Shown here piece after piece: positions 10,188 through 51,047 of a stretch of DNA of 61,812 nt. Source of the DNA: a virus. The translations under genes were made by a program, and so were the position numbers. The stretch is taken from the IMG/VR virus record IMGVR_UViG_3300045988_111035; one strand, given 5' to 3'. The notes under the pieces were generated by a model. That model was not told the DNA's origin and did not search any database. It saw only the letters and a program-made list of their open reading frames with translations. Each line of letters starts with the position of its first letter. Within the stretch, counting starts at the first letter, position 1.

Positions 10188-10205
10188 ATTCTTAATATTT
10201 TTCGG

Positions 10206-10287
10206 TAAAATTACTGCATTTTGCCCTCTCGCTTGTGATAAGTTGCGCAACTTATCGTTGTTTTTCCACTTTTTATGTCTATTTTTG
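10206..10287. promoter_or_regulatory. Bidirectional late-type promoter unit 2: perfect 20-bp palindrome GATAAGTTGCGCAACTTATC (10237..10256) flanked by -7 boxes
   Basis: The core is at 10243..10250. TAATTTTA lies on the minus strand at 10213..10206 and TATTTTTG on the plus strand at 10280..10287, each exactly 29 nt from the core. Confidence 0.7.
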
Positions 10288-32321: not shown

Positions 32322-32403
32322 TATTTTGCAAATTTACGATTTTTATTTTAATTTCAACAACGCTTCGGCGAAAAGATTGCATCCGTAGCCTCAGCAAAGA
32401 ATG

Positions 32404-33030
32404 CTATTCCTTAGAGAAGTCAAAGACGTAAGTGTTTCCATTTACAGGAACTTTGACTATCATATTCTGTGCCTTTGGGTTCTTTGCCACAATCATGCCC
32501 TGCTGCGTCTGCCTTGCAAGAATTGTAACACGCTTGAAATATTTAGCATTAATATTCGCCTCAGCCTCAGCACGTGCCTCATCATTAGCCCCTGTCCTTA
32601 TATTAGCTTTTGTTTCTATTGTCGTATTCTGCCCATTTGAGCTACTAACCTCTGTCTTCACAGTTTGAGTCTCAGTATTGTTCGGACCCCAAAGAAGGAT
32701 TCTTGTCTTTTCCTTTTTCACCCACTCATCACAAGTATAAACTGCACATGATTCCACCTTACCCTTATTCGTAGCCTCAACTATAATTTTGGTTGGGTCG
32801 AAATTAAAAGTACTTTGTCCATTATTAACAACCATAACATGAAGTTCCTGGTGCTTCAACACCTTGTTGTCATCTTTCTTTGAGACAACAACTGAGATTC
32901 CATTGTCGCCTTCAACACATACAGCCTTTTGACCATAACTGTAGCCAACAACACACTTGTCAAATGTTTTCTGAGCCATTGATGAAACACTACCTAGTAG
33001 CATTACCATCGAAAGTAAAATCATTTTCAT
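32404..33030 (-). CDS. Secreted/periplasmic protein with signal peptide (moron)
   Basis: MKMILLSMVMLLGSVSSMAQK looks like a signal peptide. 208 aa, beta-rich. Confidence 0.6.
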   Translation of the reverse strand: MKMILLSMVMLLGSVSSMAQKTFDKCVVGYSYGQKAVCVEGDNGISVVVSKKDDNKVLKHQELHVMVVNNGQSTFNFDPTKIIVEATNKGKVESCAVYTCDEWVKKEKTRILLWGPNNTETQTVKTEVSSSNGQNTTIETKANIRTGANDEARAEAEANINAKYFKRVTILARQTQQGMIVAKNPKAQNMIVKVPVNGNTYVFDFSKE

Positions 33031-33033
33031 AAT

Positions 33034-33378
33034 CTACAAACTAAATATTAAGAAAAGAACCCCCAAAATTAATACAGCAATATTTGCAAAAGCAAGATAT
33101 AGCCAATATCCGACAGTCCTTTTATCATTTGTTTTTATATGCTCCCCAATAATGCCTCCTATGCTTCCACCTACAAAAAGAGACAAGATTAAGCTTAGAT
33201 TCCAACTTAGTATAATACTAAGGGCATCATTCATTTTAGCTAGGAAAGATAAATAATAACAAAAACAAAGTTGAATCAAGAAAGCCCCTACGATTTGGCT
33301 ATCCCTGTTCTTTATATGACATGCTGCTATAACAGCATATATAAAAGAAATTATTGTCAGTACTATAAATGTTTCCAT
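33034..33378 (-). CDS. Four-TM membrane protein (moron)
   Basis: 114 aa, almost entirely hydrophobic helices, starting 10 nt after the repressor stop codon. Confidence 0.6.
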   Translation of the reverse strand: METFIVLTIISFIYAVIAACHIKNRDSQIVGAFLIQLCFCYYLSFLAKMNDALSIILSWNLSLILSLFVGGSIGGIIGEHIKTNDKRTVGYWLYLAFANIAVLILGVLFLIFSL

Positions 33379-33388
33379 TGCATTTTAA

Positions 33389-33721
33389 TTATCCGACACG
33401 TTTCTGACTTCTTGCAGATAGACCTTGCATTTCTCTCAAAAGATTGTTCTCAGCTTTTAATGCAATGTTTTCTTTCTCCAACTCCAACAAGTCAGTTGGA
33501 GTTGAAGCATTTTTTATCACTGGAGTTTGAACAGCGGAATCGAAGAACTCCGCTACACTTACTCCCAAAACATCAGCAAGACTTTCTACAGTGCTAACTT
33601 TTACATCAGCACCATTCAATAGATTGTCAAGCGTAGTTCTGCTGACTTTCATCTTAGCAGCAATATCTATCTTGCTAAGTTTATTAGACACAATAATGTC
33701 CACTATTCTTTGCACATTCAT
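33389..33721 (-). CDS. CI-like repressor, XRE-family HTH
   Basis: KIDIAAKMKVSRTTLDNLLNGADVKVSTVESLADVLGVSVAEFF is a typical HTH_3 motif. The gene is divergent from the early plus-strand operon. Confidence 0.7.
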   Translation of the reverse strand: MNVQRIVDIIVSNKLSKIDIAAKMKVSRTTLDNLLNGADVKVSTVESLADVLGVSVAEFFDSAVQTPVIKNASTPTDLLELEKENIALKAENNLLREMQGLSARSQKRVG

Positions 33722-33807
33722 AGCAAATATATCTTAAATGTTCAACAAAGTGGGTTAATAATTCTTAATATTGTCCACTAAACCATACATATACAAAAAG
33801 TTTATTG

Positions 33808-34722: not shown

Positions 34723-35124
34723 ATGAAAGAGAAACTACATGCCATCCTCCATTACGTTAGTGAAGCCAAGACTTCATTAAAAGAAATAGATGCGTTCAAT
34801 GCCTTCGACCGTTCGGCAACCAAAGACACCGTGCTTTACTACCTTAACAATGCCATCACAGACATCGAAGCCGCAATAAAGGAAGACGAGGAAGAGCCAA
34901 CCGAACGCTTCGAGGTCAGAAAGAAGCTCGTCCAGATACTTGGATTACCTTCAACCAAAGACGAATGCCATAGATTTGAAGAAGCCTTTGACTGGGTAAT
35001 GGACGGAAAGAAGGTTGACCGAGACGGCAAGCTGTTCTGCCTAGAATATGCAAGAAAGCATGAAAGCCCCAATTCCGCAAGCGTATTGGAAAAGGCTAAG
35101 AGCATCTTCAATGTTTTACTCTAA
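34723..35124 (+). CDS. Hypothetical early protein
   Basis: 133-aa ATG ORF in the early operon. Confidence 0.55.
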   Translation: MKEKLHAILHYVSEAKTSLKEIDAFNAFDRSATKDTVLYYLNNAITDIEAAIKEDEEEPTERFEVRKKLVQILGLPSTKDECHRFEEAFDWVMDGKKVDRDGKLFCLEYARKHESPNSASVLEKAKSIFNVLL

Positions 35125-37966: not shown

Positions 37967-39331
37967 ATGAAATCAGACGGCTACATCATCACTCCCGAGC
38001 TGTTGCAGTGGAGATACTTCCATCGCCCAGTGGTCGTGCAGGTGCTCATCCATGTGCTCCTGTCTTCCACCCACAACGAGGCATCCGCTGCGACCCTCTC
38101 CTACCGTGACCTTGCCTTGCAGCTCCATGCGACGGTGAAGGCGGTACGCTGCGCCATTGACGTGCTCGTAGCCGAGAGAATCATCACCAAATGCACCTCC
38201 CCAAGGTCTTCCACCAAACTCTATATTAACAGTTCACACCCTCTATCCCACTGCGTCATACCATGGCAAAATGACATTAGGGCACAAGCCACGGCACAGA
38301 TTGGGGCACAACAAGGGGCACAGTTTTCACATTTACAACACGCTGACAATCAAGGTTGTAAGGTGTATTACCAAGACGGTAGGGGCACAGATAGGGGCAC
38401 GGCTACGGCACACATTAGGGCACAGCAAAAACGTGGGGCACAAGCTACGGCACAGATTGGGGCACAGATTTCACACTCCAAAACCCCTTTAAATAAAGGT
38501 GTTCCCGAGGATTTTGAGCCAAGCAAGGGCACAGATGAGGACACAAGCAAGGGCACAGGAGTAAGAGGAAAGAAACAAAGAAAAGAAAACACTTCCCCTG
38601 AAACCCCTATAAAAGAAAACAAACAAAGAAAGCAGAAAGCCCCCACCCAAACACCCAAAAAAGAAAAAAAAAAAAAGTTGGTGGATGCCGAAGCTCAGTT
38701 CTTGGAAGTGCTAAGGCTCTTCAACCGCCTGTTCATGGGCACGCAAGTAAAGTCAATCTCGAAGATGACACCCGACCGCAAGAAGCTGGTCGCCAAGTTT
38801 ATCTCAGATTACTCCTACGAGGACATAGAGCCAATGCTTCGGAAGGCACTCAATTCCGACCTTCTTTCTGGGCGCAAGGATGGAGACTGCTACATTTCCT
38901 TCAACTGGCTCTTCAATCCCAAGAACTACGAGCCTCTGATGGAAGGCACATTCGACAACCCGAAGGTTGCAGCCTCAGCGAGAAAGAAGGCATCAGCCAT
39001 GGCTCAACCCACAGTCTCAGCACCGTCTCCACCTTCCGAGCCTCAGCGACAACTGAGCTACGAGGAGTCCGAGGCGTTGAAGACCAAGCTGAGGGAAGAC
39101 AAGGAGAAGGCTGACAAGGAGAAGCTAAGGCAAAGGTATCTGGACTACATCGAGGCAAGCAAGGACAATCCAAACGGCACGATGGCGAAGATTGTGCGCC
39201 AAGCCTACCAAGACGGCACGCTGGCAAACCTAGGAATCGTGTGGAATCCGTCCATCGAGGAAGAAAACCAGTCGCTCCTAGACTTGGATGACCAGACACA
39301 GAGTTACCTACAGAGCATTTTATCAGATTGA
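37967..39331 (+). CDS. Replication initiator/replisome-organiser-like protein with internal iterons
   Basis: 454 aa. It has an N-terminal wHTH-like region, a central AQ-rich tandem repeat, a K-rich linker, and a C-terminal ...CYISFNWLFNPKNYEPLMEGTFDN typical of phage replication-organiser C-termini (from memory). Confidence 0.5.
   Translation: MKSDGYIITPELLQWRYFHRPVVVQVLIHVLLSSTHNEASAATLSYRDLALQLHATVKAVRCAIDVLVAERIITKCTSPRSSTKLYINSSHPLSHCVIPWQNDIRAQATAQIGAQQGAQFSHLQHADNQGCKVYYQDGRGTDRGTATAHIRAQQKRGAQATAQIGAQISHSKTPLNKGVPEDFEPSKGTDEDTSKGTGVRGKKQRKENTSPETPIKENKQRKQKAPTQTPKKEKKKKLVDAEAQFLEVLRLFNRLFMGTQVKSISKMTPDRKKLVAKFISDYSYEDIEPMLRKALNSDLLSGRKDGDCYISFNWLFNPKNYEPLMEGTFDNPKVAASARKKASAMAQPTVSAPSPPSEPQRQLSYEESEALKTKLREDKEKADKEKLRQRYLDYIEASKDNPNGTMAKIVRQAYQDGTLANLGIVWNPSIEEENQSLLDLDDQTQSYLQSILSD
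38276..38560. repeat. Iteron-like array: 13 GGCAC(A/G) units at about 12-bp phasing in three clusters
   Basis: Units start at 38281, 38293, 38305, 38316, 38382, 38394, 38406, 38418, 38435, 38447, 38459, 38527 and 38551. There is also a 31-nt near-repeat GGCACAAGC(C/T)ACGGCACAGATTGGGGCACA at 38281 and 38435. Confidence 0.8.
38664..38676 (+). repeat. A13 homopolymer inside the replication gene
   Basis: AAGAAAAAAAAAAAAAGTTGG, encoding a KKKK stretch about 100 bp after the iteron array. Confidence 0.9.
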
Positions 39332-39905: not shown

Positions 39906-40175
39906 ATGGAACTAGGATTCATCATGGCAATGGCTTGTCTAGTCACGGTAGGTTGCATATACCTCTGCCTCATTGTCAAGAACGAACGCCGAAAATGCGG
40001 TTCATGCAAGTTCTTCACGCCCAAAGGCAAGTATTGCGGCACATGCAACGGATTCGGCGAATCCCGATTCAAGTGGGAACTCTGCGGACATTGGAAACGC
40101 ATCCCGAAAGAAGAAAGCAAGGAGGAGAGTTTCAAAAAAAGGAGATTGGGTAAGAATTGTTGCGTATCACAATGA
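39906..40175 (+). CDS. TM + Cys-rich (CxxC..CxxC) small protein
   Basis: 89 aa: MELGFIMAMACLVTVGCIYLCLIV then RKCGSCKFFTPKGKYCGTCNGFG. Confidence 0.55.
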   Translation: MELGFIMAMACLVTVGCIYLCLIVKNERRKCGSCKFFTPKGKYCGTCNGFGESRFKWELCGHWKRIPKEESKEESFKKRRLGKNCCVSQ

Positions 40176-40398
40176 CTACATCTTATCCTGGGTAGGTCCA
40201 ATAAAGAACAGCTCTGAGTATTGCATCCTTTTCGACTTCTGTATCTGTGGTGGATATGATGTAAGAATGAATTTTATTGTCAAACTTACAGACATGGGAG
40301 ACGAGCGTTTTGCATACAAGATTCCGAAGGAAGAAATCGAGATAATAAAAAAATACCTTGCCATGACTGTCATGAGCAAGAAACAAATGAGAAAGTAA
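40141..40398 (+). other. Protein-like open frame (+1 relative to 39906 ORF) lacking its own start until 40267; possible frameshift continuation at the A7 run
   Basis: GDWVRIVAYHNDYILSWVGPIKNSSEYCILFDF... is open from the A7 tract (40134..40140). The first in-frame ATG after the tract is at 40267. Confidence 0.35.
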
Positions 40399-40442
40399 CG
40401 CAAGAAGCTGCCAGGGGCGTATGGTATTGAGTAATTAACCAA

Positions 40443-40471
40443 TCCTCTCCTTGGTGACAGCAGGGAGAGGA
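40443..40471 (+). terminator. Hairpin at the left boundary of the AT-rich SD-bearing island
   Basis: TCCTCTCC / GGAGAGGA forms an 8-bp stem with a 13-nt loop, 45 nt after the stop codon at 40398. Confidence 0.5.
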
Positions 40472-40486
40472 ATAATAAAGAAGAAT

Positions 40487-40633
40487 ATGAATGTAGATAA
40501 AGCAAAGAGAAACATCAGAAAAGTATATAAAGATATTCAGACAGAATCTGCTTATGGCAGTGCAGCTAGTGTTAGCAAGATGAATGAATGGGCAGAAATA
40601 CTTGATGATGCACTTGCATTCTTAGGAGACTGA
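40487..40633 (+). CDS. Small helical protein (48 aa)
   Basis: ATG within ORF 40451..40633, in the AT-rich island. Confidence 0.45.
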   Translation: MNVDKAKRNIRKVYKDIQTESAYGSAASVSKMNEWAEILDDALAFLGD

Positions 40634-40727
40634 CTTATGAATAAAATGTATCAGATAGACCAAGACCTCAAAGACAAGCTAGTCAAAATGAGTTAGCCTT
40701 GGCAATTAAGGAATTAGGGGATTGATT

Positions 40728-41015
40728 ATGAAGAAAATTTATATGATTATAAGAATTTTAACTTGTAAGAAAGTTATTCTTATCTCAGAGTTAAGTGAAA
40801 AATTCTATAAAATATCTTTTGATGGTTTAGACGAGATTGAAGCAACCAGAATTATTAAAAATATTATTGTAACAATGAATAGTATGAATAAAGAATTTAT
40901 AAAAGGTCAGCTTAAAGGTGCTTTGTATTGGCTTAATAAGTCAAATACAGAGAAAGACGTCTTGCACGCTAAAGATAGTATAAATATGGCACTTAAAGAA
41001 TTGGAGGAAGAATAA
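40728..41015 (+). CDS. Small hypothetical protein (95 aa)
   Basis: ATG preceded by AGGGGATTGATT (SD-like). The C-terminus is ..MALKELEEE. Confidence 0.5.
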   Translation: MKKIYMIIRILTCKKVILISELSEKFYKISFDGLDEIEATRIIKNIIVTMNSMNKEFIKGQLKGALYWLNKSNTEKDVLHAKDSINMALKELEEE

Positions 41016-41146
41016 TGAGTAAGGAAAAAGCTATCGAGAAAATCCATAAAAGTATTGACATACTTAAATGGTATCGTGTGTCAAAGAATGAGAAGAATAA
41101 AGCTATTTGTTTTTTGCGTGAGGCAATTAACGAGTTGGAGGAGTAA
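41015..41146 (+). CDS. Small hypothetical protein (43 aa)
   Basis: TAATG overlap with the previous gene and the SD TTGGAGGAAG 5 nt upstream. The C-terminus is ..REAINELEE. Not in the ORF track. Confidence 0.45.
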   Translation: MSKEKAIEKIHKSIDILKWYRVSKNEKNKAICFLREAINELEE

Positions 41147-41149
41147 ATT

Positions 41150-41338
41150 ATGGCTACATCAAGAAAGAAACAACTATGGTATCTTTGGATAGCGAGAGAT
41201 AAACGTCAACTACACCCAAAATACCATGATGAATTGGAGCTACATGGTAAGCTCCATGTATTTTATGACTCACCAATATTAAAAAATGGCAAATGGACAT
41301 CTGCGAGACAATTAGGCGGAGAGATCCGTCTTAAATGA
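41150..41338 (+). CDS. Small hypothetical protein (62 aa)
   Basis: SD GTTGGAGGAG 6 nt upstream. Confidence 0.5.
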   Translation: MATSRKKQLWYLWIARDKRQLHPKYHDELELHGKLHVFYDSPILKNGKWTSARQLGGEIRLK

Positions 41339-41343
41339 TAAAT

Positions 41344-41514
41344 ATGACAAGAGAAGAATTATAAAATGAACTTGGCGATGCTGTCTGTGAGTATTGCAAT
41401 AAGAACATCATTTCAGCCTATAACCTTGGTATAGGCTGGCTTTGTGAAGGGCATTATTGTGAAGAAGCACAAGATGGCTACGCAGATGAAAATAATATAG
41501 AGTTGGAGGATTGA
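41344..41514 (+). pseudogene. Zinc-ribbon-like small gene interrupted by an in-frame TAA (41362..41364)
   Basis: ATG ACA AGA GAA GAA TTA TAA AAT GAA CTT.. translates as MTREEL*NELGDAVCEYCNKNIISAYNLGIGWLCEGHYCEEAQDGYADENNIELED. There is no in-frame start codon after the stop. Confidence 0.4.
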
Positions 41515-41516
41515 TT

Positions 41517-41897
41517 ATGGATAGAAATCAAGCAAAAGAGCTACTGCCTATTATTACGGCATACAGCGAAGGAAAGGAAATACAAATACAGCATATTGAT
41601 GGTACGTGGCAAGATGCTAAATATCTCAACCTTGGCAGAGGTTTGATTTACCGCATCAAGCCAGAGCCTACCTACCGCCCTTTTGCCAACGCAGAAGAGT
41701 GCTGGCATGAAATAAGAAAACATGAGCCGTTCATTAAATACAAGACCATAGAAAGTAGTAAGGACGTTTATCTCATTATTCAAAGAATAAAGACTGACGG
41801 AATCGAAACAGATGTTGAACGGCTTGATTTTGAAACGGCTTTTGAATGTTTTACATTTGCTGATGGAACACCATTTGGAATTTTAGAGGAGGAATAG
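41517..41897 (+). CDS. Hypothetical prophage protein (126 aa)
   Basis: SD GTTGGAGGATTG upstream. KPEPTYRPFANAEECWHE...FTFADGTPFG is a pattern common in prophage accessory proteins (from memory). Confidence 0.55.
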   Translation: MDRNQAKELLPIITAYSEGKEIQIQHIDGTWQDAKYLNLGRGLIYRIKPEPTYRPFANAEECWHEIRKHEPFIKYKTIESSKDVYLIIQRIKTDGIETDVERLDFETAFECFTFADGTPFGILEEE

Positions 41898-41899
41898 AT

Positions 41900-42133
41900 A
41901 TGACAAAAACCAAGATAGTAAGAAGTTGGGATAAGGAGAAAAAGGAAGAGGTATATACTTTCTATGAGTACTTCCAATGTATTTTCTTTCCTTTTGTTGG
42001 TAGTTGGGTTAAAGACCCAATGAGAACAAATGTGAATGGTAAAAGAATGGTAGAGTTAGCTTCTATTCTTCTTAATATGGATGAAGAAACTATTATTACA
42101 GAAGTTGACTATAAATCTTATAAGGAGGAATAG
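41900..42133 (+). CDS. Small hypothetical protein (77 aa)
   Basis: SD AGAGGAGGAA upstream. Confidence 0.5.
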   Translation: MTKTKIVRSWDKEKKEEVYTFYEYFQCIFFPFVGSWVKDPMRTNVNGKRMVELASILLNMDEETIITEVDYKSYKEE

Positions 42134-42135
42134 TT

Positions 42136-42526
42136 ATGAGAGAAATCAAGTTTAAGGCTAAACGCCTCGATAACGGAGAATGGTGTGAAGGCTATTTCTA
42201 CGAAGAAAATGGCAATACATACATCATCGAGAACCGACAGAAAGAAAGTATGCTAAACCGGTATGCTAAACCGAAATGTTGTCCATCAGGTTGACCGTTC
42301 TACGGTCTGCCAGTTCACAGGGCTGAAAGACTGCGATGGAACGGACATCTTTGAGGGAGACCTTCTGGCAGAAAAAAGATTTCCTATGTATGAAGTAGGA
42401 TATGTCGATAGTGAATTTGCGGCTTCTTACATTGGAGAAAACACATTTATATTCAAACTCCCTGCTTTAAGCAAGGACTGTGTGGTCTGTGGCTCAATAT
42501 ACGACAGAAAGGAAGGTGAAAAATGA
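42136..42526 (+). pseudogene. yopX: YopX-family gene disrupted by a 13-bp tandem duplication
   Basis: The N-terminus MREIKFKAKRLDNGEWCEGYFYEENGNTYII is in one frame. The C-terminus VHQVDRSTVCQFTGLKDCDGTDIFEGDLL (the YopX hallmark) is in another. GTATGCTAAACCG occurs at 42248..42260 and again at 42261..42273, and removing one copy restores the frame. Confidence 0.75.
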
Positions 42527-42675
42527 TAAAGCAAGTTTATTTAGTCACATATAATGAACGCTTTGGGTATGCTGATACACTTGAAAAAGCAAAAGCATTG
42601 GAAAGTCAATTTATTTCATCTTTTAGCCCTCCTTGTGAGGCAAGAACTTGCAGTAGAAAGGAAGGTGAAAAATGA
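42523..42675 (+). CDS. Small hypothetical protein (50 aa) bounded by 21-bp repeats
   Basis: ATGA overlaps at both ends. The exact repeat AGAAAGGAAGGTGAAAAATGA occurs at 42506..42526 and 42655..42675. Confidence 0.45.
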   Translation: MIKQVYLVTYNERFGYADTLEKAKALESQFISSFSPPCEARTCSRKEGEK

Positions 42676-42905
42676 AGAAAGTAACTGTAAATATTATATT
42701 TTCCATTGTAATTTTCTTTATGGTGGTGGCAATACCATTCTTCTTAGTATCTTGTATTTTCTATAGAATTGCAGGGTTCTTCGTGAGATTTATAATACCA
42801 TCTATAGGTATTTTACATGAGTGGCAAAAAAATCTTGTGTTAAGTTTAGATAAACTATTATTGGTTTGTCTGTATTCACAGAGAAAGGACACGATTATCT
42901 GGTAG
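42672..42905 (+). CDS. Small membrane protein (77 aa)
   Basis: Two hydrophobic helices and the SD AAGGAAGGTG upstream. Confidence 0.5.
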   Translation: MKKVTVNIIFSIVIFFMVVAIPFFLVSCIFYRIAGFFVRFIIPSIGILHEWQKNLVLSLDKLLLVCLYSQRKDTIIW

Positions 42906-42973
42906 TGGACACGAAACACGGAGTTTGTGTTATTCACGCAAGAAGTTGTCCTTGTCATAAAAAGAAGTAGTGT

Positions 42974-43123
42974 ATGAAGGTTAGATTAGCAAAGAAGATA
43001 AATAAAGGATTAGACAAGTTATCTCCCTATTGGCTGCATCAATCTCTTATTTATATTGCAGGGAATGGAGATAAGGGAGACCACCGCATCATCAAGGCGA
43101 TAAGTTTAACTAAAAATAAGTAG
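42974..43123 (+). CDS. Small hypothetical protein (49 aa)
   Basis: MKVRLAKKINKGLDKLSPYW... It is bounded by TAG(T/C)GTATG junctions. Not in the ORF track. Confidence 0.4.
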   Translation: MKVRLAKKINKGLDKLSPYWLHQSLIYIAGNGDKGDHRIIKAISLTKNK

Positions 43124-43126
43124 CGT

Positions 43127-43351
43127 ATGAAAAAGTTAATATTAGTAGTACTTGCAACTATTCTAATAGTAGGTTGCAGAGAGAACGGAACTCCAGTTAA
43201 AACAACTGATTCCGAATACAACTTTAATGTTGTTAAGCTATTTGAGATTGATGGAGTTTCAGTGTACCGTTTTTATGATGGTGGTAAATATGTATATTTC
43301 ACGAATAGCAATGGTAAAGTACAATCTATAAGCAGACATACACATTATTAG
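43127..43351 (+). CDS. Small lipoprotein (74 aa)
   Basis: MKKLILVVLATILIVGC has a lipobox (LIVGC). Confidence 0.6.
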   Translation: MKKLILVVLATILIVGCRENGTPVKTTDSEYNFNVVKLFEIDGVSVYRFYDGGKYVYFTNSNGKVQSISRHTHY

Positions 43352-43453
43352 CGTATGCCATAAGACGGACTACAAGCCGAACCTAAGAGATAAGCGAAAG
43401 TTTAACGCTGAGTTAAGAAGAGACAGAAATATAATGATTAAAACATTCTGAGT

Positions 43454-43765
43454 ATGGAAAATCTAGAAGACATTAAGGTAGGAGACAAGGTTATCCTATA
43501 CTTTGACAATGTGCAATCTATGTGTGAGGTCAAGCGACTGTTCAAGAATATTGTCTGCACCATTGGTGGCGACAAGTTCCGAAAGAAAGACGGAACTATG
43601 GTAGGTGCCATAAGCAATCCTCCACCATACATACGTGAGGCTACACAAGAACGTATTTTAGAGTTCGAGCACAGAAAAGAACTTTTATGTAAAATACACG
43701 ACTACCCTTTTGGAAAGCTATCAACCGAGGTGCTTGAAAAAGTGTATAAACTGATTAAAAAATAA
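43454..43765 (+). CDS. Hypothetical protein (103 aa)
   Basis: ATG ORF in the accessory plus-strand operon. Confidence 0.5.
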   Translation: MENLEDIKVGDKVILYFDNVQSMCEVKRLFKNIVCTIGGDKFRKKDGTMVGAISNPPPYIREATQERILEFEHRKELLCKIHDYPFGKLSTEVLEKVYKLIKK

Positions 43766-43769
43766 GCGT

Positions 43770-44144
43770 ATGGAAAAGAAAGTACTGACCCTATCGGTCA
43801 AAAAGGAATGGTTTGACAAAATCGTGTCGAACGAAAAGACGGAAGAGTATCGGGAGATTAAGCCGTATTGGGTAGCACGATTGTTTCAAGACAATAGCAA
43901 TATTGTTGATGTGCAATATTTAGCTTCAGGTTTAATAGGGCGCACGGATTTGCTTAAAGGCTATATTGACGCACATAGAATAGTACCAAAGCCTTATACT
44001 CACGTCCTCTTCATCAATGGCTACCGCAAGGATAGCCCACGAATTAAGAAGGAGATTGAGAGCATCGCCATCGGCAAGCCAAAGAAAGGACTTTGCCCTT
44101 ACAAGTGGCTAGATAAGGAATTTTTCATCATTAAATTTAAGTAG
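43770..44144 (+). CDS. ASCH-domain-like protein
   Basis: LTLSVKKEWFDKIVSNEKTEEYREIKPYW resembles the ASCH/PUA-like N-terminal motif. Confidence 0.45.
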   Translation: MEKKVLTLSVKKEWFDKIVSNEKTEEYREIKPYWVARLFQDNSNIVDVQYLASGLIGRTDLLKGYIDAHRIVPKPYTHVLFINGYRKDSPRIKKEIESIAIGKPKKGLCPYKWLDKEFFIIKFK

Positions 44145-44145
44145 T

Positions 44146-44517
44146 ATGATAACAGACAAACAGATAGAAAAAGCTGCAATCGCATGTGCTGATGAATATT
44201 ATGCCATTGATTTAGGTAAAGATAGGGAAGAAACCAACAGAGAACTATTCACAAGAGGTGCTCACTGGGCAATCGAGCAATTCTTGAAGGACTTGTGGCA
44301 TGATGCAAAGGAAGAGCCTATAAATGGAGATATTTTAGTGGAATCCACATACACATCTGATGGGTTTTCTCAAAAGTGCTATTCTGTAGAATATATTGCT
44401 GATTTTGACATTACATATTACGATTGGAAAGAATATGTAGAACAGAATTGTGTCACTCGTTGGCTATACATCGAAGACCTCTTGCCAAAGAAAGGAGGCT
44501 CTGATGGGAAGACGTAA
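44146..44517 (+). CDS. Hypothetical protein, paralogue-like of 33868..34401 (DUF551-like)
   Basis: Shared WHDxxEEP and RW(C/L)YIEDLLP motifs. Confidence 0.55.
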   Translation: MITDKQIEKAAIACADEYYAIDLGKDREETNRELFTRGAHWAIEQFLKDLWHDAKEEPINGDILVESTYTSDGFSQKCYSVEYIADFDITYYDWKEYVEQNCVTRWLYIEDLLPKKGGSDGKT

Positions 44518-45232
44518 GAAGACTGACGAGGAGATACGAGAGTACCACAAGAAGTACTACCGTGAGCACAAGGAGCATCTTTTGGCACAGATGGCCATAT
44601 ACCGAGAGGCCAACGCCGAGAGAATCAAAGCCAACAAAAAGTACAACAGTAAAAAGAACAAGAGGCTAAGAGCCTTGAAGAAACTAAACTTACAGACAAT
44701 GGAAAAATTAAGCAAGAAGACAGTGTTGTTCATCGACTTGGACGGCACGCTAATCAAGACGGTATCGGGCAAGACGTTCCCCGAGGACTGCACCGACTTC
44801 CGAATCAGAAAGGAAGTGCTCGACAAAATCGCAAAGGTGTTCACCAAGCTTGAACTTGTCGGCATCGTGACAAATCAAGGAGGAATACCAGAGTACGTTT
44901 CCAAAAACGACTTTTGGGCGAAGTTCCAAAGCATCATGCAGTTCTTAAGTGCTTACTTGATTGACAAGTACCAAGACGGAAAGTTGTTCCGTCCTGAGGT
45001 GGATGGTTGGTACTGCATTTCAACCGACATGGAAGACCCTCTCCGCAAACCAAACGTGGGAATGCTGGAGAAAATCCTAGAGTTTCATCCTAACAACAAA
45101 CATTCCAAGAAAGAAATGGTCATGATTGGGGATGCCAGTGGAAAGCCAGGGCAATTCTCCGACTCAGACAAGAAATGTGCCGAAAATTTCGGTATCGACT
45201 ACATAGACGTGGAAGACTTCATCAACCTATAG
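44504..45232 (+). CDS. HAD-superfamily polynucleotide 3'-phosphatase (PNK3P-like) with a basic N-terminal extension
   Basis: Motif I is FIDLDGTLI. Motif II is IVTNQGG. Motif III is MIGDASGKPGQFSDSDKKCAENFGIDYIDVEDF, which matches the PNK3P pattern GDAAGR..DFS..D..FA.N.G. Confidence 0.6.
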   Translation: MGRRKKTDEEIREYHKKYYREHKEHLLAQMAIYREANAERIKANKKYNSKKNKRLRALKKLNLQTMEKLSKKTVLFIDLDGTLIKTVSGKTFPEDCTDFRIRKEVLDKIAKVFTKLELVGIVTNQGGIPEYVSKNDFWAKFQSIMQFLSAYLIDKYQDGKLFRPEVDGWYCISTDMEDPLRKPNVGMLEKILEFHPNNKHSKKEMVMIGDASGKPGQFSDSDKKCAENFGIDYIDVEDFINL

Positions 45233-45479: not shown

Positions 45480-46012
45480 GTGAAGAATCAGCAAAAGCAT
45501 TCCACAAGCTAGTGAGTGCCATGCGCACGTCACAGAAGGAGTTCTGGAGAACACGGAACAAGTACGCCCTCAAACAGTCCATCGAGCTGGAGAAGCAAGT
45601 GGACGAGACCATCATGGAGGCGAGCGCATCCGATGTTCCCGACAACGAGAACGGCAAATTCTTTTTGGAGGTGGCGCAACTACGCACCACCACCAAGCTC
45701 TACTTCGCCGAGAAGAAGAAATGTGATGCCGACAAGGAGAAAATCAACGCTTGGTTCAAGTCCATCAAGGAGGGGGAAACCAAGGTTGACAAGATGCTGG
45801 TCAAGTGGTTCGACGAGCTGGCAATCAAGGAAGGCAAGCGCATCGTCTGGCACGTCATGGAGAGATTCCCCAACGCCAAGGAGGCAAGGAGCATCTTCGA
45901 CAACACCGACGAGCAAATGGCGAGAATCGAGCTTAACGACCACCTCAGGAAACCAGCCTGTCCTGGCACCATGTACTTCATAGCCAAGGAATACAAGGAG
46001 GTCAAGAAATGA
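45476..46012 (+). CDS. Hypothetical protein (178 aa)
   Basis: ATG ORF with ATGA overlaps on both sides. Confidence 0.55.
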   Translation: MSEESAKAFHKLVSAMRTSQKEFWRTRNKYALKQSIELEKQVDETIMEASASDVPDNENGKFFLEVAQLRTTTKLYFAEKKKCDADKEKINAWFKSIKEGETKVDKMLVKWFDELAIKEGKRIVWHVMERFPNAKEARSIFDNTDEQMARIELNDHLRKPACPGTMYFIAKEYKEVKK

Positions 46013-46593
46013 TACATACAGTAACAATCAAAAATCACAAGATTATGGAAAAGAAACAAGATGCTCCTGCAAAGGAGAAGTTCACCGACAAGGGTGACGG
46101 TAAATCATTGCGCTCACGCACTGGCACATGGTTCGAGTGCAAGGTGAAGTACGAGAAGACACAGGAAGACGGAACGAAAAAGCCTGTACTGGAGGCATAC
46201 ACCGTGGATGCCCTCTCCTTCACCGAGGCAGAGGCACGCATCTTAGACGAAATGAGCGTCTATGTGTCTGGAGAGTTCAGAATCATCAACATCGACCCTG
46301 CCAAGTATGGGGAGATATTCTTCTCCGACATCGACGATGATGACCTTTGGTTCAAGGCGAAGCTAGCCTTCATCACCATCGACGAGAAGACACAGAAGGA
46401 AAAACGCTCCTACAACAACTTCCTTGTTCAAGCCAAGTCACTGGAGCGTGCAAGAAGATACGTGGACACCGTCATGGGCAAAACCATGATAGACTATGAA
46501 ATCAAGAGCCTCATCGAGACCAAAATCATGGACGTGTTCGAGCATGACTTGAAAGTGAGCATCAACGTCTGTGACAAGGGCGACAACAAGTAA
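46009..46593 (+). CDS. DUF4494-like conserved Bacteroidota protein
   Basis: WFECKVKYEKTQEDGTKKPVLEAYTVDALSFTEAEARI...FITIDEKTQKEKRS..LVQA...IMDVF matches the DUF4494 pattern recalled from memory. Confidence 0.5.
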   Translation: MIHTVTIKNHKIMEKKQDAPAKEKFTDKGDGKSLRSRTGTWFECKVKYEKTQEDGTKKPVLEAYTVDALSFTEAEARILDEMSVYVSGEFRIINIDPAKYGEIFFSDIDDDDLWFKAKLAFITIDEKTQKEKRSYNNFLVQAKSLERARRYVDTVMGKTMIDYEIKSLIETKIMDVFEHDLKVSINVCDKGDNK

Positions 46594-46677: not shown

Positions 46678-47004
46678 ATGAAAAAGATTAAGAGATACCT
46701 CATTTACCTGCGCCTCTGGTTCATCAAGCGCATGGGCTACAAGCTCCCCTCGCTGAGAGAAGCCGAATACATAGTTCCTGGTCAACTCTATGACCACTTC
46801 GCATACGTCGTACGTGCCGTTTATGACAAGAAGAGGCTTCCCCTACAGAATAATCCAGCATTAGCCCAAGACCCAAAATGTTATTTTTGCGACTTCCACA
46901 GAAAGGGAATACCTTGCAACTTCTGCCACAAGATGGCGAACGGAAGCGACATCTGCGACAAGCATGTGTTCGAGATTATCTGCAAGAATACCGACAATAT
47001 ATAA
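46678..47004 (+). CDS. Hypothetical Cys/His-containing protein (108 aa)
   Basis: First ORF after promoter unit 4. An alternative start lies at 46732. Confidence 0.5.
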   Translation: MKKIKRYLIYLRLWFIKRMGYKLPSLREAEYIVPGQLYDHFAYVVRAVYDKKRLPLQNNPALAQDPKCYFCDFHRKGIPCNFCHKMANGSDICDKHVFEIICKNTDNI

Positions 47005-47016
47005 TAATGTATAGCT

Positions 47017-47745
47017 ATGAAGAAAGAAAAGCCCAATTACAAGATTGACAAGAAGACTGGTCACGTCCTCGAAGTACCCACGTCCAAGCAAGTGCGTGAG
47101 AAGGTCAAGAAGGCACGTGAGAAGAAAACCGCCGATGCCAAGACCGAGGAACAGCCTCAGCAACAGAAGAAGGTCTTCAACAAGAAGGCGTTCGACAAGA
47201 TGCAAGCGGTCATAGACCGTATGCACGCCAAGGCGAAACTCCCCGACTGCCTCACAATGGCTAGTAGAAAGTACCTATCCACCGTATGCGTCATCAACAA
47301 GGACGGAAAGAAGCGTGAATTGCTCCCCGACAAGAAAGGTCGCCACGTCATGCTCTGCCATGGCAAGATGGCACGCATCTTCACCAATGATTTCTGCCAG
47401 ATAGTGAAAATCCAAAAGTCCTTCTCCAACGATAAAACAAAACGTGAACTATGGAACGATGGAAGCTGGGCGATTGTACCATGTCGTGTGGAAATCTCCA
47501 ACAGCACCACCATACAGGAGGTACGCCGCCGTCCGTGGTTCTTCCTGCACCGCTACTGGTATGAGATAACCTTCGATGGTCATGTGCAACCTGCCATGAT
47601 GATGGTCGATTACAACCTGCACCCCGAGCGCAAGAAACAACACTTCTGGGTCACACGTGAGTACATCAAGGTAAGGAACACGGATGCAGAGAACGACTAT
47701 TTGCGATTCTGGTACAACAAACCTACCGCCTATGGAAACGAATGA
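47017..47745 (+). CDS. Hypothetical protein (242 aa), basic N-terminus
   Basis: ATG ORF in the plus-strand late-type operon. Confidence 0.55.
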   Translation: MKKEKPNYKIDKKTGHVLEVPTSKQVREKVKKAREKKTADAKTEEQPQQQKKVFNKKAFDKMQAVIDRMHAKAKLPDCLTMASRKYLSTVCVINKDGKKRELLPDKKGRHVMLCHGKMARIFTNDFCQIVKIQKSFSNDKTKRELWNDGSWAIVPCRVEISNSTTIQEVRRRPWFFLHRYWYEITFDGHVQPAMMMVDYNLHPERKKQHFWVTREYIKVRNTDAENDYLRFWYNKPTAYGNE

Positions 47746-48133
47746 TGTCATCATCCTCAACCGTCCACGCCAACAGAAGCGTGGACTCTCCATCAACGTC
47801 AACGGTCGCATTACCCTTCGCTCCGCCCCCTGCAAGCTGTTGGGGCTAAAGCCAGGCGATTTCCTCTCCTTCGCCAGTCGTGGCTCACAGACCTACATCA
47901 TCAAGTGTGGAGACATAGAGAATGCAATCAGGCTCTTTGGAAGACCAGGACAACTACACGGCAACAGTACCGCAACGGCAAAGTACCTGTTCATGGTTAT
48001 CTACAATATGCCGATAGCCGCCAAGGAAGTTGATTTGGTTGTCTCCAGACAAGTGGAAAGCATACAGATAGGAGATACATCCTACCCTGCGCTGGCTTTC
48101 ATCAATAGGTGCGACAAGGAACATTATAGATAG
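47732..48133 (+). CDS. AbrB/SpoVT-like DNA-binding protein candidate
   Basis: GRITLRSAPCKLLGLKPGDFLSF resembles the looped-hinge-helix motif of AbrB/MazE. The ATG lies within ORF 47684..48133. Confidence 0.4.
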   Translation: METNDVIILNRPRQQKRGLSINVNGRITLRSAPCKLLGLKPGDFLSFASRGSQTYIIKCGDIENAIRLFGRPGQLHGNSTATAKYLFMVIYNMPIAAKEVDLVVSRQVESIQIGDTSYPALAFINRCDKEHYR

Positions 48134-48164
48134 ATTCTTCATTTTTTTATAACAACATACAAGC

Positions 48165-51047
48165 ATGCAACAGTTAATCAGATTCAAGGGGCTGAGCCTC
48201 ACACCTGATGAAATGGCGGTCGAGAACGGTGCGTTGTCCTTGTGCGGCAACTTGGAGCTGCACGACGGCGCACTGCGACCTTCCATCCTACAGGGGACGA
48301 AACTTCCCTCTCCATTGGTCGTAAGCGGCACCGTGGCAAGACTCACCTACGTACACGAGACTTCGGAATACAAGCACCTCATCGCCATCAGTGGCTCAGA
48401 TGTCTATTGGTTCAACCAAGAGGGAGTCCTTGGCTCCTCATCCCCCATCAAGTACTTCGACTACCAAGCCACCGTGCTCTCCATCAACTCCAGCGGCAAC
48501 ACGCTCGTCATCGTGGCTACCGATGGGCTTCACTATGTACTATGGTTGGAAGGTAGCTATCACTATCTGGGGCAAAAGCCACCGTTCATTGATATTTCCT
48601 TCAATATTTCAGTGGCTGACTACTATGAGGACTATGACACTGGTGGTGTGGATGCTGACGGAAGTAAATACGGTTTCGACCATGCCTTTCAACAAACCAC
48701 GCTTTCTTGTGGTGACGCTTACAGTAAAGTGGCAGGAACAAGTTGGAATCCTGGCGATTTGTGCGTAAATATCAAGGAAGACAAGCAATCGGACTTGACG
48801 CAAAGCATTTACGCCTTGGTAAATCGCACAAACAACTTGATTGCTCGCAAAGGACGTTTCTATGCAAACTTCTTCATTCGATATTGCTACCGAATGTATG
48901 ATGGAACCATGTTCATGCACTCATGCCCTGTTTTCATTCCTGTGCAAGTGCCAAACAACTACGATGTATATGCAGCGAACTTCTATTTTCCAAAATCATC
49001 AATACAAGACAATGGAAGTATTAAGAATGCGGAAGTCAATTGGAAAGATAAGCTCAACTTCAAACGTCCAGATGCTTCTGGCACAACATTGAACGTGAAA
49101 GTCTCAAATGCCACGTTCTACTATCATCCCAGAAATGTTTCCTTGTCATATTTTATGAGAACAGTCAACAATGACACGTTTACAGAGCTCGAGAAATGGA
49201 AGGACATAATTAAATCCGTGGATTTCTTTATAACTCCCCCTATCACAAACGTAGATACATCTGAGAAAATATCAAATCTGCAAATCGCAGACGCTAATTA
49301 TTCTCTTGGATATGGCGAACGAAAATTTCAATACGCTACTGACGATGATACATATGGCTACGTCAAGGTAAAATTCCCGGCAACAGCAGAAGACACGTAC
49401 AGAAAGAAACTCCTCAACTCTTCCTCATATTTCAAGGTATGCTCTATCCAAACCAATGAGATTAGAACGAAAAGCTCAGGCGAACTTCCTGTAGATAAAA
49501 ATGCAGTCTATCAAGTCTCATTGCAGGAGCAAATGAAGGATGATTATAAGACGCACAACCACCTTTACGCACAGGGAAGTTATGTGTATAATCATCGCCT
49601 CAACTTATACGGTTGCAAGGAGAAACTCTTTGAGGGCTTTTCCAATCTAACATTACTCCCAAATGCTAGTTTCATTAAGAAGCCTGTTTTTAATAATCCC
49701 ATCTTTGGAAATGGGGAACAAAGCTATAGTATTAAAAAGATAGTCGTTCGGTTAAATACCACTTCGGGGACGAAGTATGTGGAGAAAGAAAGATTTTACC
49801 TCGCTGGCATATTTTCTGGTGGAATGGAACAATACATGCTTTGCAATTGCTCAAAGTTTTACCCAGACACAAGGGCTGACAAAATGGTGTTCTTCACGGT
49901 AGATGGGGATGGAAAAGAAGTAATCTTCGCCTTCGACCTCACTGAGTGCGACGAGTTGAATGGAGCAATCCACATGGGAACCTTCGAGGATGACGGCAGC
50001 CAATACAAAGTAAGCTCATTTGATTACACCGTGGATGACATCGTGGCCCTAAACAACAAAATCTACACCTCTGAGGCAGACAATCCCTATTATTTCCCTG
50101 TCAACGCCATCAACACCGTGGGAATAGGAACTATCCTAGGCATAGCCTCATCGACAAGGGCACTCAGCCAAGGTCAGTTTGGACAATATCCTTTGATGGC
50201 TTTCACCACCGATGGTGTCTGGGCTCTCAATGTGTCGGCAAATGGCACGTACTCCAACATCCACCCTATTTCGAGGGAAGTGTGCTCCAACGTCAAGTCC
50301 ATCACCCAACTGGACCAGTCCGTGCTCTTCACCACCGACCGTACGCTCAACAAGATTGTGGAATCTCAGATAGCGTCCTTCTCAGATGTCTTGGATGGCC
50401 CATACTTCAACATAGCGTCCATGATGCCAGAGGCGTTCGATTGGATAAAGGAGAACACCACGCTGCAAAAGCTAATTGATTTCGACAAGTCGCCGATTTC
50501 CTTCTTCCAGGATTGCCAGTTCATCTACGACTACAAGAACTCACGCATCTTCTGCATCGACACAGACACGGCTTCCACCAATGACAAGACCACGGTCGCC
50601 CTCTGTTACTCGCTGCGTGACGGCACATGGAGCACGCTACTCGTCGGTTCTCCGCTTGTCGCCCTCAACTCCTACCCACATCCTTACATACAGTACAAGG
50701 ACGGTAGCGTCACCTGCCTCGACAAGGGGTACGACTACAACGACGGGAACGCCTATGACGGCATCATCGTCACCCGAACGCTCAAACTTGACGAGGACGA
50801 ATGCCCCGACTCCATCACTGGCTACGTCCACTCGCTCACCTCTAAGACGATTCCGCTGATGTGGCTGTATGGGAGCAACGACAATCAAAACTGGCACTAC
50901 ATCGGTCGTGTGGGAGGTTACAAGTCCAACTACATGGCGACCAAGAGCTACCGATATTTCCGCATCGGCATCTTCATGAGGATGCTCGCCAAGTCGCAAT
51001 ACATGGCAACTCGCCTTAACTTCGTTCGCAAGTTCGGCAAGATATAA
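48165..51047 (+). CDS. Large (960 aa) structural protein candidate (tail/baseplate-like), function unknown
   Basis: Long beta-rich ORF at the end of the operon driven by late-type promoter unit 4, with an AT-richer central part. Confidence 0.45.
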   Translation: MQQLIRFKGLSLTPDEMAVENGALSLCGNLELHDGALRPSILQGTKLPSPLVVSGTVARLTYVHETSEYKHLIAISGSDVYWFNQEGVLGSSSPIKYFDYQATVLSINSSGNTLVIVATDGLHYVLWLEGSYHYLGQKPPFIDISFNISVADYYEDYDTGGVDADGSKYGFDHAFQQTTLSCGDAYSKVAGTSWNPGDLCVNIKEDKQSDLTQSIYALVNRTNNLIARKGRFYANFFIRYCYRMYDGTMFMHSCPVFIPVQVPNNYDVYAANFYFPKSSIQDNGSIKNAEVNWKDKLNFKRPDASGTTLNVKVSNATFYYHPRNVSLSYFMRTVNNDTFTELEKWKDIIKSVDFFITPPITNVDTSEKISNLQIADANYSLGYGERKFQYATDDDTYGYVKVKFPATAEDTYRKKLLNSSSYFKVCSIQTNEIRTKSSGELPVDKNAVYQVSLQEQMKDDYKTHNHLYAQGSYVYNHRLNLYGCKEKLFEGFSNLTLLPNASFIKKPVFNNPIFGNGEQSYSIKKIVVRLNTTSGTKYVEKERFYLAGIFSGGMEQYMLCNCSKFYPDTRADKMVFFTVDGDGKEVIFAFDLTECDELNGAIHMGTFEDDGSQYKVSSFDYTVDDIVALNNKIYTSEADNPYYFPVNAINTVGIGTILGIASSTRALSQGQFGQYPLMAFTTDGVWALNVSANGTYSNIHPISREVCSNVKSITQLDQSVLFTTDRTLNKIVESQIASFSDVLDGPYFNIASMMPEAFDWIKENTTLQKLIDFDKSPISFFQDCQFIYDYKNSRIFCIDTDTASTNDKTTVALCYSLRDGTWSTLLVGSPLVALNSYPHPYIQYKDGSVTCLDKGYDYNDGNAYDGIIVTRTLKLDEDECPDSITGYVHSLTSKTIPLMWLYGSNDNQNWHYIGRVGGYKSNYMATKSYRYFRIGIFMRMLAKSQYMATRLNFVRKFGKI

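Follow-up and report, generated by a model that had tools for sequence, protein, structure and literature searches.

What accounts for a run of strong Shine–Dalgarno (SD) sites in a phage genome whose other genes mostly start without them? The question arises at positions 40443–43450 of a 61,812-bp viral DNA of 46.7% GC (IMG/VR record IMGVR_UViG_3300045988_111035; "the window" denotes this whole stretch), where a preliminary description, made from the sequence alone, read an AT-rich island of SD-led genes as a recent import into a Bacteroidota phage from an SD-dependent, Firmicutes-like phage lineage. Comparison with related loci leads to a different account, in which the island is probably a native, hyperplastic array of gene cassettes with SDs that function in translational coupling or are left over from it, and is not a Firmicutes import. 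An apparent transfer between phyla thereby becomes an ordinary phage feature, a hypervariable accessory slot.

A hypervariable slot between conserved blocks

The replication initiator of the window (37967–39331) is encoded in four IMG/VR contigs, in three of them at 96–100% identity. The DNA of these three near-identical relatives (L001–L003 among the loci compared here) aligns with the window by blastn at 97–99% identity until 40395 and again from 43769, and is mostly different in between. These synteny breakpoints delimit a slot on the + strand, 40396–43768, with a partly variable continuation that trails to ~44.7 kb. Variable small genes lie between conserved blocks and the breakpoints among close relatives are sharp, and on this comparative evidence the slot is a hyperplastic accessory-gene region. 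The proposal of an accessory island was therefore sound, as close relatives differ exactly here. The relatives fill the slot with 3054 bp (L002) and 2691 bp (L003) of mostly other DNA, at ~37.6% GC vs ~45% in the rest of the same loci and rich in strong SDs such as AAAGGAGGTGA-ATG and GTGAGGAGGTGGTACA-ATG. That the alternative fillings of near-identical phages show the same signals argues against an import particular to the window. Those pieces of the slot that are shared differ in their degree of identity: window 41648–42171 is 98.5% identical in L003, while 41648–42545 is only 90.5% identical in L001, whose flanks are 98.7–99.2% identical. Judged by these alignments, the shared pieces have histories of their own.

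The base composition of the slot (GC 0.358 vs 0.473 for the remainder) agrees with the AT-richness first described, although the low-GC stretch reaches further, from ~40.2 to 44.5 kb. The 1-kb windows of 40001–44000 have 36–37% GC and that of 44001–45000 has 42.6%. A second AT-rich patch at 31–34 kb (GC 0.35–0.40) contains called genes without SD, so AT-richness alone does not bring the motif. Cassette DNA has ~35–38% GC in most backbones examined, regardless of backbone GC, and for this reason the slot stands out in a phage of 47–50% GC; in the related locus L004, slot and backbone are both ~41% GC and there is no contrast.

The slot sits just past the replication module in a long rightward operon (the + strand block at 33.9–51 kb) and holds ~14 co-oriented genes of 19–126 aa, of which at least two are already inactivated. 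At most junctions, stop and start codons are no more than 4 nt apart or overlap as ATGA/TAATG. Spacings of −4 to +4 nt precede the starts at 40638, 41015, 41150, 41517, 41900, 42136, 42523 and 42672, and the stop/start overlaps of the preliminary description are present at 41015, 42523 and 42672. A sigma-70-type scan, which Bacteroidota-type promoters may escape, finds no excess of promoter-like or terminator-like sites in 39–45 kb, so the slot is probably transcribed within a single operon. The same scan and the co-orientation of the genes give no sign of a moron or lysogenic-conversion island with its own promoter and terminator. Matches to the Bacteroidota-type promoter pattern TTTG...TAnnTTTG number 6, vs 1.4 expected, too few to be used as evidence.

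Stop–start linkers and their Shine–Dalgarno motifs

To measure the SD signal, the 13 curated + strand genes of 40396–43768 were compared with 53 genes elsewhere in the window, always from the first ATG, an SD being a match of at least 5 nt to AGAAAGGAGGTG at −20 to −4. SDs precede 9/13 slot genes and 4/53 of the others (Fisher p = 1.1e-5). The median anti-SD duplex energies are −10.7 and −2.0 kcal/mol, respectively; these energies use an assumed Bacteroidales 16S tail, of which the canonical CCUCC core is stated in PMC7797042, and the motif counts are independent of it. Only 2.7% of the slot's 73 non-start ATGs reach −8 kcal/mol. All five GGAGG motifs on the slot's + strand sit within 4–11 nt upstream of a start, a placement for which 3% of positions qualify, and more narrowly at 6–8 nt. 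As such, complementarity to the CCUCC core occurs at 5–9 nt from the starts well above background, and every SD site listed in the preliminary description is present within ±1 nt. Its statement that nearly every start is SD-led holds for the run of starts from 40638 to 42672 and fails for the last three slot genes (42974, 43127 and 43454), the first two of which follow an A-rich "...AAGTAG(C/T)GT ATG" junction. Likewise, TerL, the portal gene and the giant open reading frame (ORF) have no SD, as had been stated, and 49 of the 53 outside genes conform, the exceptions being four strongly SD-led genes at 27723–29027 (−), 34723–35124, 44504–45232 and 46009–46593.

The motifs belong to short junction sequences that recur. 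Inside the window, GGCAnTTAAnGAnTTGGAGGA occurs three times, AGGAGGAATAGwTATG twice and AGAAAGGAAGGTGAAAAATGA twice at 100% identity. A count of the 14-mers directly before ATG in 88 sequences (the window and 87 related loci) finds the same linkers in front of many different genes: AAAAAGTAAAGCGT occurs 57 times before 28 distinct downstream genes, AAAAGAAGTAGCGT 74 times before 24, GAAGGAGGTGAGCA 48 times before 16, GTGGAGGAATAGTT 25 times before 14, TTGGAGGATTGATT 47 times before 13 and ATGGAGGTGTAGGT 20 times before 12. Linkers are 14–21 nt long and begin with the last codons of the upstream gene, and each SD-type and ...GCGT-type linker tabulated includes the upstream stop codon, then 2–5 nt and ATG. 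Several classes hold a canonical SD, while others are A-rich and SD-less.

Homology among related loci breaks at these linkers. Aligned copies of a Cys-rich slot gene have diverged in their bodies and are followed by different genes, yet share a 100% conserved linker, and the switch falls exactly at the ATG. Across the slot and all fetched loci, 49 of 91 distinct ends of homology blocks lie within 25 nt of a start, vs 21% expected (p = 4e-12); short conserved motifs thus coincide with recombination end points. Near-identical phages hold other cassettes, single cassettes recur in other backbones and homology ends at starts, and these observations together identify each slot gene, at the level of sequence comparison, as an independently exchangeable cassette. 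By the same comparisons, exchange inside one operon proceeds gene by gene at conserved stop–start linkers, and the shared linkers may double as crossover points for cassette shuffling.

This organization resembles the hyperplastic regions of T4-type phages, which are shuffled through promoter-early stem-loop (PeSL) motifs (PMC2839356, PMC4122927). In both, conserved core blocks flank clusters of small genes, most of them unknown, single genes are inserted or replaced between near-identical phages, and short conserved gene-boundary motifs appear as crossover points. Only one junction class here has a conserved stem-loop (40443–40471) like that of PeSL, and a boundary unit of promoter plus stem-loop or terminator is therefore not general among the junctions. 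In contrast to PeSL, most junction motifs are 14–21-nt stop–start translational linkers without promoter or terminator. An SD is present in several of the linker classes, unlike in the T4-type motifs, and the phages here are temperate, have Bacteroidales hosts and are unrelated to T4.

Two features of the linkers suggest nucleotide-level selection on the SDs as components of the stop–start junction. The spacer from GGAGG to ATG is 7 nt in 25/49 distinct junctions and 6–8 nt in 42/49, and the final four codons of upstream genes in tight coupling favour GAG over GAA for glutamate at 381:297, vs 5812:8953 within gene bodies (p = 7e-18). These tails are also ~3-fold enriched in Lys and Glu. The SD goes with the junction and not with the gene, as full-length homologues of the 126-aa slot gene at 41517 (p41517) split between a strong SD (39/77) and an A/T-rich, SD-less leader (38/77).

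The same placement is seen in ~100 related loci, in which 2,364 non-redundant starts were sorted by junction class. An SD of at least 5 nt precedes 30.9% of starts at gaps between −8 and +8 nt, vs 9.3% at gaps of 9–40 nt, 7.1% at gaps above 40 nt and 6.5% of leading genes (odds ratio for coupled junctions 5.8, p = 3e-28); the mock SD background, from 80 loci of the p41517 family, is 3.8%. Firmicutes loci treated by the same crude procedure have SDs at 31–59% in all junction classes, in contrast to the concentration at coupled junctions found here, which speaks against a Firmicutes source. Other Bacteroidota prophage-like loci (L014–L088) have, by the crude measure, SDs at 21% of coupled and 4.5–7% of other starts, so the pattern may be general for Bacteroidota mobile elements. 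In low-GC gut phage contigs that carry long SD-led arrays, the large genes are SD-led in only 2/18 (MT835597) and 0/7 (MT835610) cases, again unlike what import from an SD-dependent phage would lead one to expect.

Hosts of the cassette pool and the reading of the motifs

The host of the window phage can be approached through the 124-aa gene that closes the slot (43770–44144), hereafter the anchor gene, an alignment of which was used to scan one genome per species. It matches metagenome-assembled genomes (MAGs) of Segatella copri (81% and 59% identity) and a Prevotella sp. MAG (60% and 47%), and, at 46%, the genomes of two isolates, Prevotella merdae and Leyella stercorea. An integrase 43–56% identical to that of the window (30219–31715, −) is also encoded at the P. 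merdae locus, and the host is therefore a member of the Bacteroidales, most likely of the Prevotellaceae. Its gene content and these matches identify the window as a ~62-kb temperate phage of Bacteroidales, most likely of Segatella/Prevotella. A "Bacilli bacterium" MAG contig (L011, CAAGQJ010000014.1) with an anchor gene 63% identical was considered as a link to Firmicutes and rejected. About 20–25% of its genes are SD-led by the crude measure and several large genes have typical A-rich, SD-less starts, a mixed pattern that equals that of the Bacteroidales phages here, so the contig is probably a mis-binned Bacteroidales phage.

SD-bearing arrays are also integrated in a Bacteroidales chromosome. 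In L012, a prophage part of 36.4% GC with SD-led arrays ends at a tyrosine integrase, which adjoins hisG, hisD, hisC and ygiQ, all without SD and of 50.5% GC; hisD is 67–71% identical to genes of Phocaeicola, Bacteroides and Parabacteroides. On this sequence evidence, L012 places the cassette pool directly in a Bacteroidales host. The same cassette families and linkers occur in Segatella/Prevotella MAG contigs and in hundreds of gut phage contigs.

A cultured relative extends the pattern. BS-TP4 (PQ571277.1), a 64.3-kb temperate phage of Bacteroides salyersiae, shares TerL (5303–7480 in the window), integrase, methyltransferase, replication initiator, VRR-NUC and DUF4494 proteins with the window, at protein identities of 30–71% (methyltransferase, 71% aa over the best 133-aa segment). 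Both phages have an ORF of more than 5000 aa by the portal gene. In the window, the 5596-aa giant ORF (10908–27698, −) lies near the portal gene (8136–10250, −), with one small ORF between, and the ORF of BS-TP4 (gp3, 5391 aa) has the same position; the two show no sequence similarity above the tblastx thresholds used. By the depositors' annotation, SDs precede 5/62 BS-TP4 genes, four of which lie in a single AT-rich block of small, coupled genes at 46951–49675 (33–40% GC vs 43% for the genome), which closely follows the methyltransferase gene in the direction of transcription. Unlike the window, BS-TP4 has different cassettes and a shorter SD run, and DNA similarity between the two is limited to the methyltransferase gene. 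The SD signals of the block are thus shared by the L002 and L003 fillings, the arrays of L009 and L012 and the BS-TP4 block, and the occurrence of such arrays in a Bacteroidales chromosome and a cultured Bacteroides phage argues against recent import.

The taxonomic distribution of the slot genes points the same way. By tblastn against 50,697 GenBank phages, seven small island ORFs have no match in Firmicutes phages; the matches of the small ORFs are to Prevotella Lak phages, a crAss-like virus, uncultured human-gut phages and one Stenotrophomonas phage. The YopX-family gene had been cited as typical of Firmicutes phages, and its GenBank-phage matches are indeed dominated numerically by Streptococcus, Listeria and Lactobacillus phages. 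These reach only 27–43% identity, vs 50–70% in the gut-phage pool (L001, 70%; MT835610, 68% over the N-terminal part; L012, 50%). Homologues in Bacteroidota phages with the same signals, which the preliminary description had named as the finding contrary to import, are largely what is seen, the exceptions being two island genes whose homologues in the Lak-A2 megaphage and a crAss-like virus have no SD.

The block is probably native to this Bacteroidales phage lineage, and the linker SDs most likely promote termination–reinitiation, or translational coupling, along a polycistronic message. The layout is that of termination–reinitiation, with a stop/start overlap or a gap of a few nt and the SD inside the upstream gene. 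Haloarchaea and Cyanobacteria use the SD for reinitiation at gene pairs that overlap and little for de novo initiation (PMC6728339), and the junctions here are similar in that the SD lies in the 3′ end of the upstream gene, is enriched at stop–start junctions and is rare at leading genes. They differ in that Bacteroidetes are the one group with SDs below 10% in both classes (PMC6728339), and the anti-SD of Bacteroidia ribosomes is reported to be sequestered. Cellulophaga phages have been noted to lack the feature (bioRxiv 10.1101/2021.04.21.440840).

Several points weigh against a role of the SDs in coupling, or against the data that suggest it. The anti-SD is sequestered in Bacteroidia ribosomes, which are described as SD-blind (PMC7797042, PMC9976891, PMC13000453), and these reports cite a paper whose title describes Prevotella bryantii as unable to form a functional SD interaction. 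Because Bacteroidetes genomes have less than 10% SD even at overlapping gene pairs (PMC6728339), such a role is without experimental precedent in the phylum. The SD is not required for expression, since p41517 is found equally often without one and SD-less linkers couple equally tightly. Internal SD-like motifs in array genes are depleted relative to synonymous shuffles (GGAGG 0.64x, AGGAG 0.66x), and the controls GGGAG and GAGAG are equally depleted. Gene calls in loci other than the window and BS-TP4 were mechanical (first ATG, ORFs of at least 38–45 aa), the p-values overstate independence because many loci are related to one another, and host labels of MAGs can be wrong.

Since the host ribosomes are reported to be SD-blind, the SDs may instead be inert linker passengers, or be recognized solely by ribosomes whose anti-SD is exposed. 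The first of these alternatives, in which the motifs have no translational role and are either passengers in recombination-microhomology linkers or decaying relics of an older SD-using ancestry, is in our judgement unlikely, though it accounts for a good deal. Entire linkers, beyond GGAGG, recur before unrelated genes, and homology blocks end at them. SD-less linker classes are as common or commoner, half of the p41517 homologues have no SD, and decayed variants (TTGGAAGA, TTGGATGA and TTGGAGAA) occur. Published work describes host ribosomes that ignore the SD (PMC7797042). A mere passenger or relic would not be expected to show a spacer distribution so sharply peaked at the functional optimum, nor a preference for GAG over GAA in gene tails despite AT-rich codon usage, and SD motifs persist in homologous contexts at only 40–50% protein identity. 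At SD-bearing p41517 junctions, GGAGG and its spacing are constant while the 2 nt before and 7–8 nt after vary, a weak argument as these junctions were chosen for the motif.

We give still less credence to the second alternative, that the SDs are read by a ribosome subpopulation with an exposed anti-SD (lacking bS18 or bS21), or by infection-altered ribosomes, so that translation is condition-dependent. Ribosomes without bS21 gain SD recognition in Flavobacterium johnsoniae (PMC9976891), a strong SD precedes rpsR in 66% of class Bacteroidia genomes, with bS18-depleted subunits as the hypothesized readers (PMC7797042), and complementarity to the 16S tail extends to 11–12 nt, as in AGAAAGGAGGTG. 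The genes rpsU and rpsR are rare SD-led Bacteroidia genes, autoregulated via exposed-anti-SD ribosomes (PMC7797042, PMC9976891, PMC13000453), and the linkers resemble them in having strong, extended complementarity to the 16S 3′ tail where other genes have no SD. Unlike these single host ribosomal-protein genes with a defined feedback, dozens of phage cassettes are involved here, with the SD at coupled junctions. The limitation to coupled junctions points to reinitiation and not to de novo recruitment; among ~40 window proteins scanned, a part of the window's genes, none is a ribosomal or ribosome-modifying protein.

Recent import from a phage of an SD-dependent, Firmicutes-like host, as yet unadapted to Bacteroidota, would fit the Firmicutes-like look of low GC with extended SDs such as AGAAAGGAGGTGA and, through disuse, the two cassettes that are already pseudogenes, and is highly improbable given the distribution of homologues, fillings and junction signals described above.

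The preferred account, a native array with SDs tied to coupling, has consequences beyond this phage. Linker-mediated modular exchange has long been proposed for phages, and a handful of standard linkers before dozens of unrelated genes in hundreds of gut phage contigs is an unusually clean case of it. The well-spaced, extended SDs of many linkers are odd because the ribosomes of Bacteroidales hosts are reported to ignore them, and as far as our literature searches show, standardized linkers with SDs concentrated at coupled junctions in phages of SD-blind hosts are undescribed. A stronger proposition, which we regard as doubtful, is that the linker SDs are functionally read in otherwise SD-blind hosts throughout a shared single-gene cassette pool in Bacteroidales and apparently other Bacteroidota phages, be it during termination–reinitiation or via exposed-anti-SD ribosomes (bS18/bS21-deficient or infection-altered). 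If this were true, phages would make specific use of a conserved, normally sequestered anti-SD, giving it a second natural function besides rpsU/rpsR autoregulation and rRNA processing, and functional SDs would be relevant to the retention of a canonical anti-SD by Bacteroidia. In BS-TP4 and its host Bacteroides salyersiae, SD function would be open to direct test. In practice, gene callers tuned to SD-less Bacteroidota starts may mis-start or miss tiny cassette genes.

Cassettes and neighbouring features

Pfam, PHROGs and PADLOC scans assign no function to most cassettes, all of which lie on the + strand. The hairpin noted at the left edge of the island is real, a conserved stem-loop CCTCTCC...GGAGAGG (40443–40471, +) with an 11-bp stem, −19.3 kcal/mol and z = −4.5, and an A-rich linker joins it to the ATG at 40487. 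The whole intergenic element (40425–40490) reads TAACTAACCA-CCCTCTCC-loop-GGGAGAGGG-TAAAAAGAAGAGAAT-ATG, and the stem-loop forms in most of 27 distinct linker-matched sequences from related loci. The two arms pair with each other, the 5′ one being similar to the anti-SD and the 3′ one to an SD. The element is also found in L006, L007, L009, L012 and many IMG/VR loci, and relatives have a second hairpin class, GCCTTCGGGC + ATAAATAGATAGTAAT-ATG.

The first cassette (40487–40633), taken from the ORF list, encodes 48 aa with no Pfam or PHROG match. A 19-codon mini-ORF follows (40638–40697), an uncertain gene with AGGAG, a 5-nt SD motif, at 40623. The tail "ALKELEEE" of the 95-aa cassette (40728–41015; linker repeat D1) encodes the SD of the next gene; whole or in part, this cassette is 86–97% identical in 16 other IMG/VR phage contigs, in which flanking homology is confined to one or two other cassettes. 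The 43-aa cassette of the MSKEKAI... family (41015–41146) starts in a TAATG overlap with its SD, GGAGG, at 41003, and MSKEK...-like N-termini and ...ELE(E/K) tails were seen by eye in L007, L009 and L012. The 62-aa cassette (41150–41338; SD GGAGG at 41137) has 62–64% aa identity to Prevotella Lak-A/Lak-C megaphages, and it is the Lak-A2 homologue of this gene that has no SD.

The Cys-rich cassette (41344–41514) is inactivated by a nonsense change of CAA to TAA at 41362–41364 (codon 7). The change is seen in alignment with L171, which has CAA, and L006, and cuts the 56 codons after 6; by tblastn, the cassette matches an intact 55-aa gene of L006. Its SD-bearing tail "IELED*" remains in front of the following gene, which makes the locus a natural test of coupling. 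That next gene is p41517 (41517–41897; SD GGAGG at 41505), a member of a large phage family with 526 relatives in IMG/VR and with no match in Pfam, PHROG, PADLOC or, by profile search with the p41517 alignment, PDB. The 77-aa cassette at 41900–42133 (SD GAGGAGG at 41886; linker repeat D3) is 100% identical at the aa level in L001 and L003.

The YopX-family gene (42136–42526; SD AGGAGG at 42123) is present as the preliminary description had it and is split. A 13-bp tandem duplication (42248–42260/42261–42273; the perfect repeat D13, GTATGCTAAACCG twice) shifts the frame and leaves ORFs of 52 and 87 aa, so the window copy lacks an intact reading frame; with one copy of the duplication removed, the product matches Pfam PF09643 at 43.3 bits vs a cut-off of 22.4, over positions 1–122 of 128. 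The duplication is a genuine inactivating change or else an error of assembly. The 50-aa cassette that follows (42523–42675) has ATGA overlaps and is flanked by the identical 21-nt linker AGAAAGGAAGGTGAAAAATGA on both sides (42506 and 42655; repeat D6, duplex energy ~−16.8 kcal/mol). At 42672–42970, a 77-aa membrane-like ORF (42672–42905) is followed by an out-of-frame 34-codon remnant (42866–42970). This region is probably frame-broken or mosaic, since the remnant is 88% identical to the C-terminus of an L007 gene (5918–6151), and it appears frame-broken beside a gene of MT835597.

The SD-less end of the slot begins with a 49-aa basic cassette (42974–43123; linker AAAAAGAAGTAGTGT ATG) that has homologues in L006 and L007. 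The 74-aa lipoprotein behind it (43127–43351; linker AAAAATAAGTAGCGT ATG), with a signal peptide and Cys, matches PHROG 6360 and DUF4884 (Pfam PF16225, 34.3 bits vs a cut-off of 30), a family regarded as Bacteroides-specific and to that extent a further point against import. A weak PHROG match to Cor superinfection exclusion makes it a candidate exclusion or lysogenic-conversion gene. At 43340–43453, an orphan linker TTAGCGT-ATG is followed by ATG CCA TAA and ~100 nt of non-coding DNA, which looks like the scar of a deleted cassette. The last slot gene (43454–43765; no SD) encodes a 103-aa ProQ C-terminal-like protein (Pfam PF24203, 28.1 bits vs a cut-off of 27), and its DNA is 94% identical in L169, beginning exactly at 43453. 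The anchor gene is conserved in L002–L004 and L007; an "ASCH-like" identity was rejected, as it has no Pfam match.

In the AT-rich continuation (44146–45232, +), a 123-aa cassette-family gene precedes the overlapping gene of a PNK3P/HAD phosphatase (44504–45232; Pfam PF08645), and the tail of the former (LPKKGGS...) carries the strong SD of the latter (AAAGAAAGGAGG, −16.3 kcal/mol). Window 44158–44699, a patch that differs among near-identical relatives, is absent from L002. Besides this PNK3P-type phosphatase, the window encodes a DNA methyltransferase and a DUF4494 protein; tRNA and Rfam scans of it gave no matches, and whole-region DNA searches found no close relative among GenBank phages, the relatives used here coming from IMG/VR.

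Elsewhere in the window, the 434-aa gene at 27723–29027 (−), just upstream of the giant ORF, has one of the strongest SDs (−17.2 kcal/mol). Near-identical relatives also differ at 32400–33800, an AT-rich patch without SDs on the integrase side. In the sister phage L002, a Tad2-like gene (11085–11315; Thoeris anti-defence 2-like, PF11195) occupies the same slot, which may for this reason be a hotspot of anti-defence genes.

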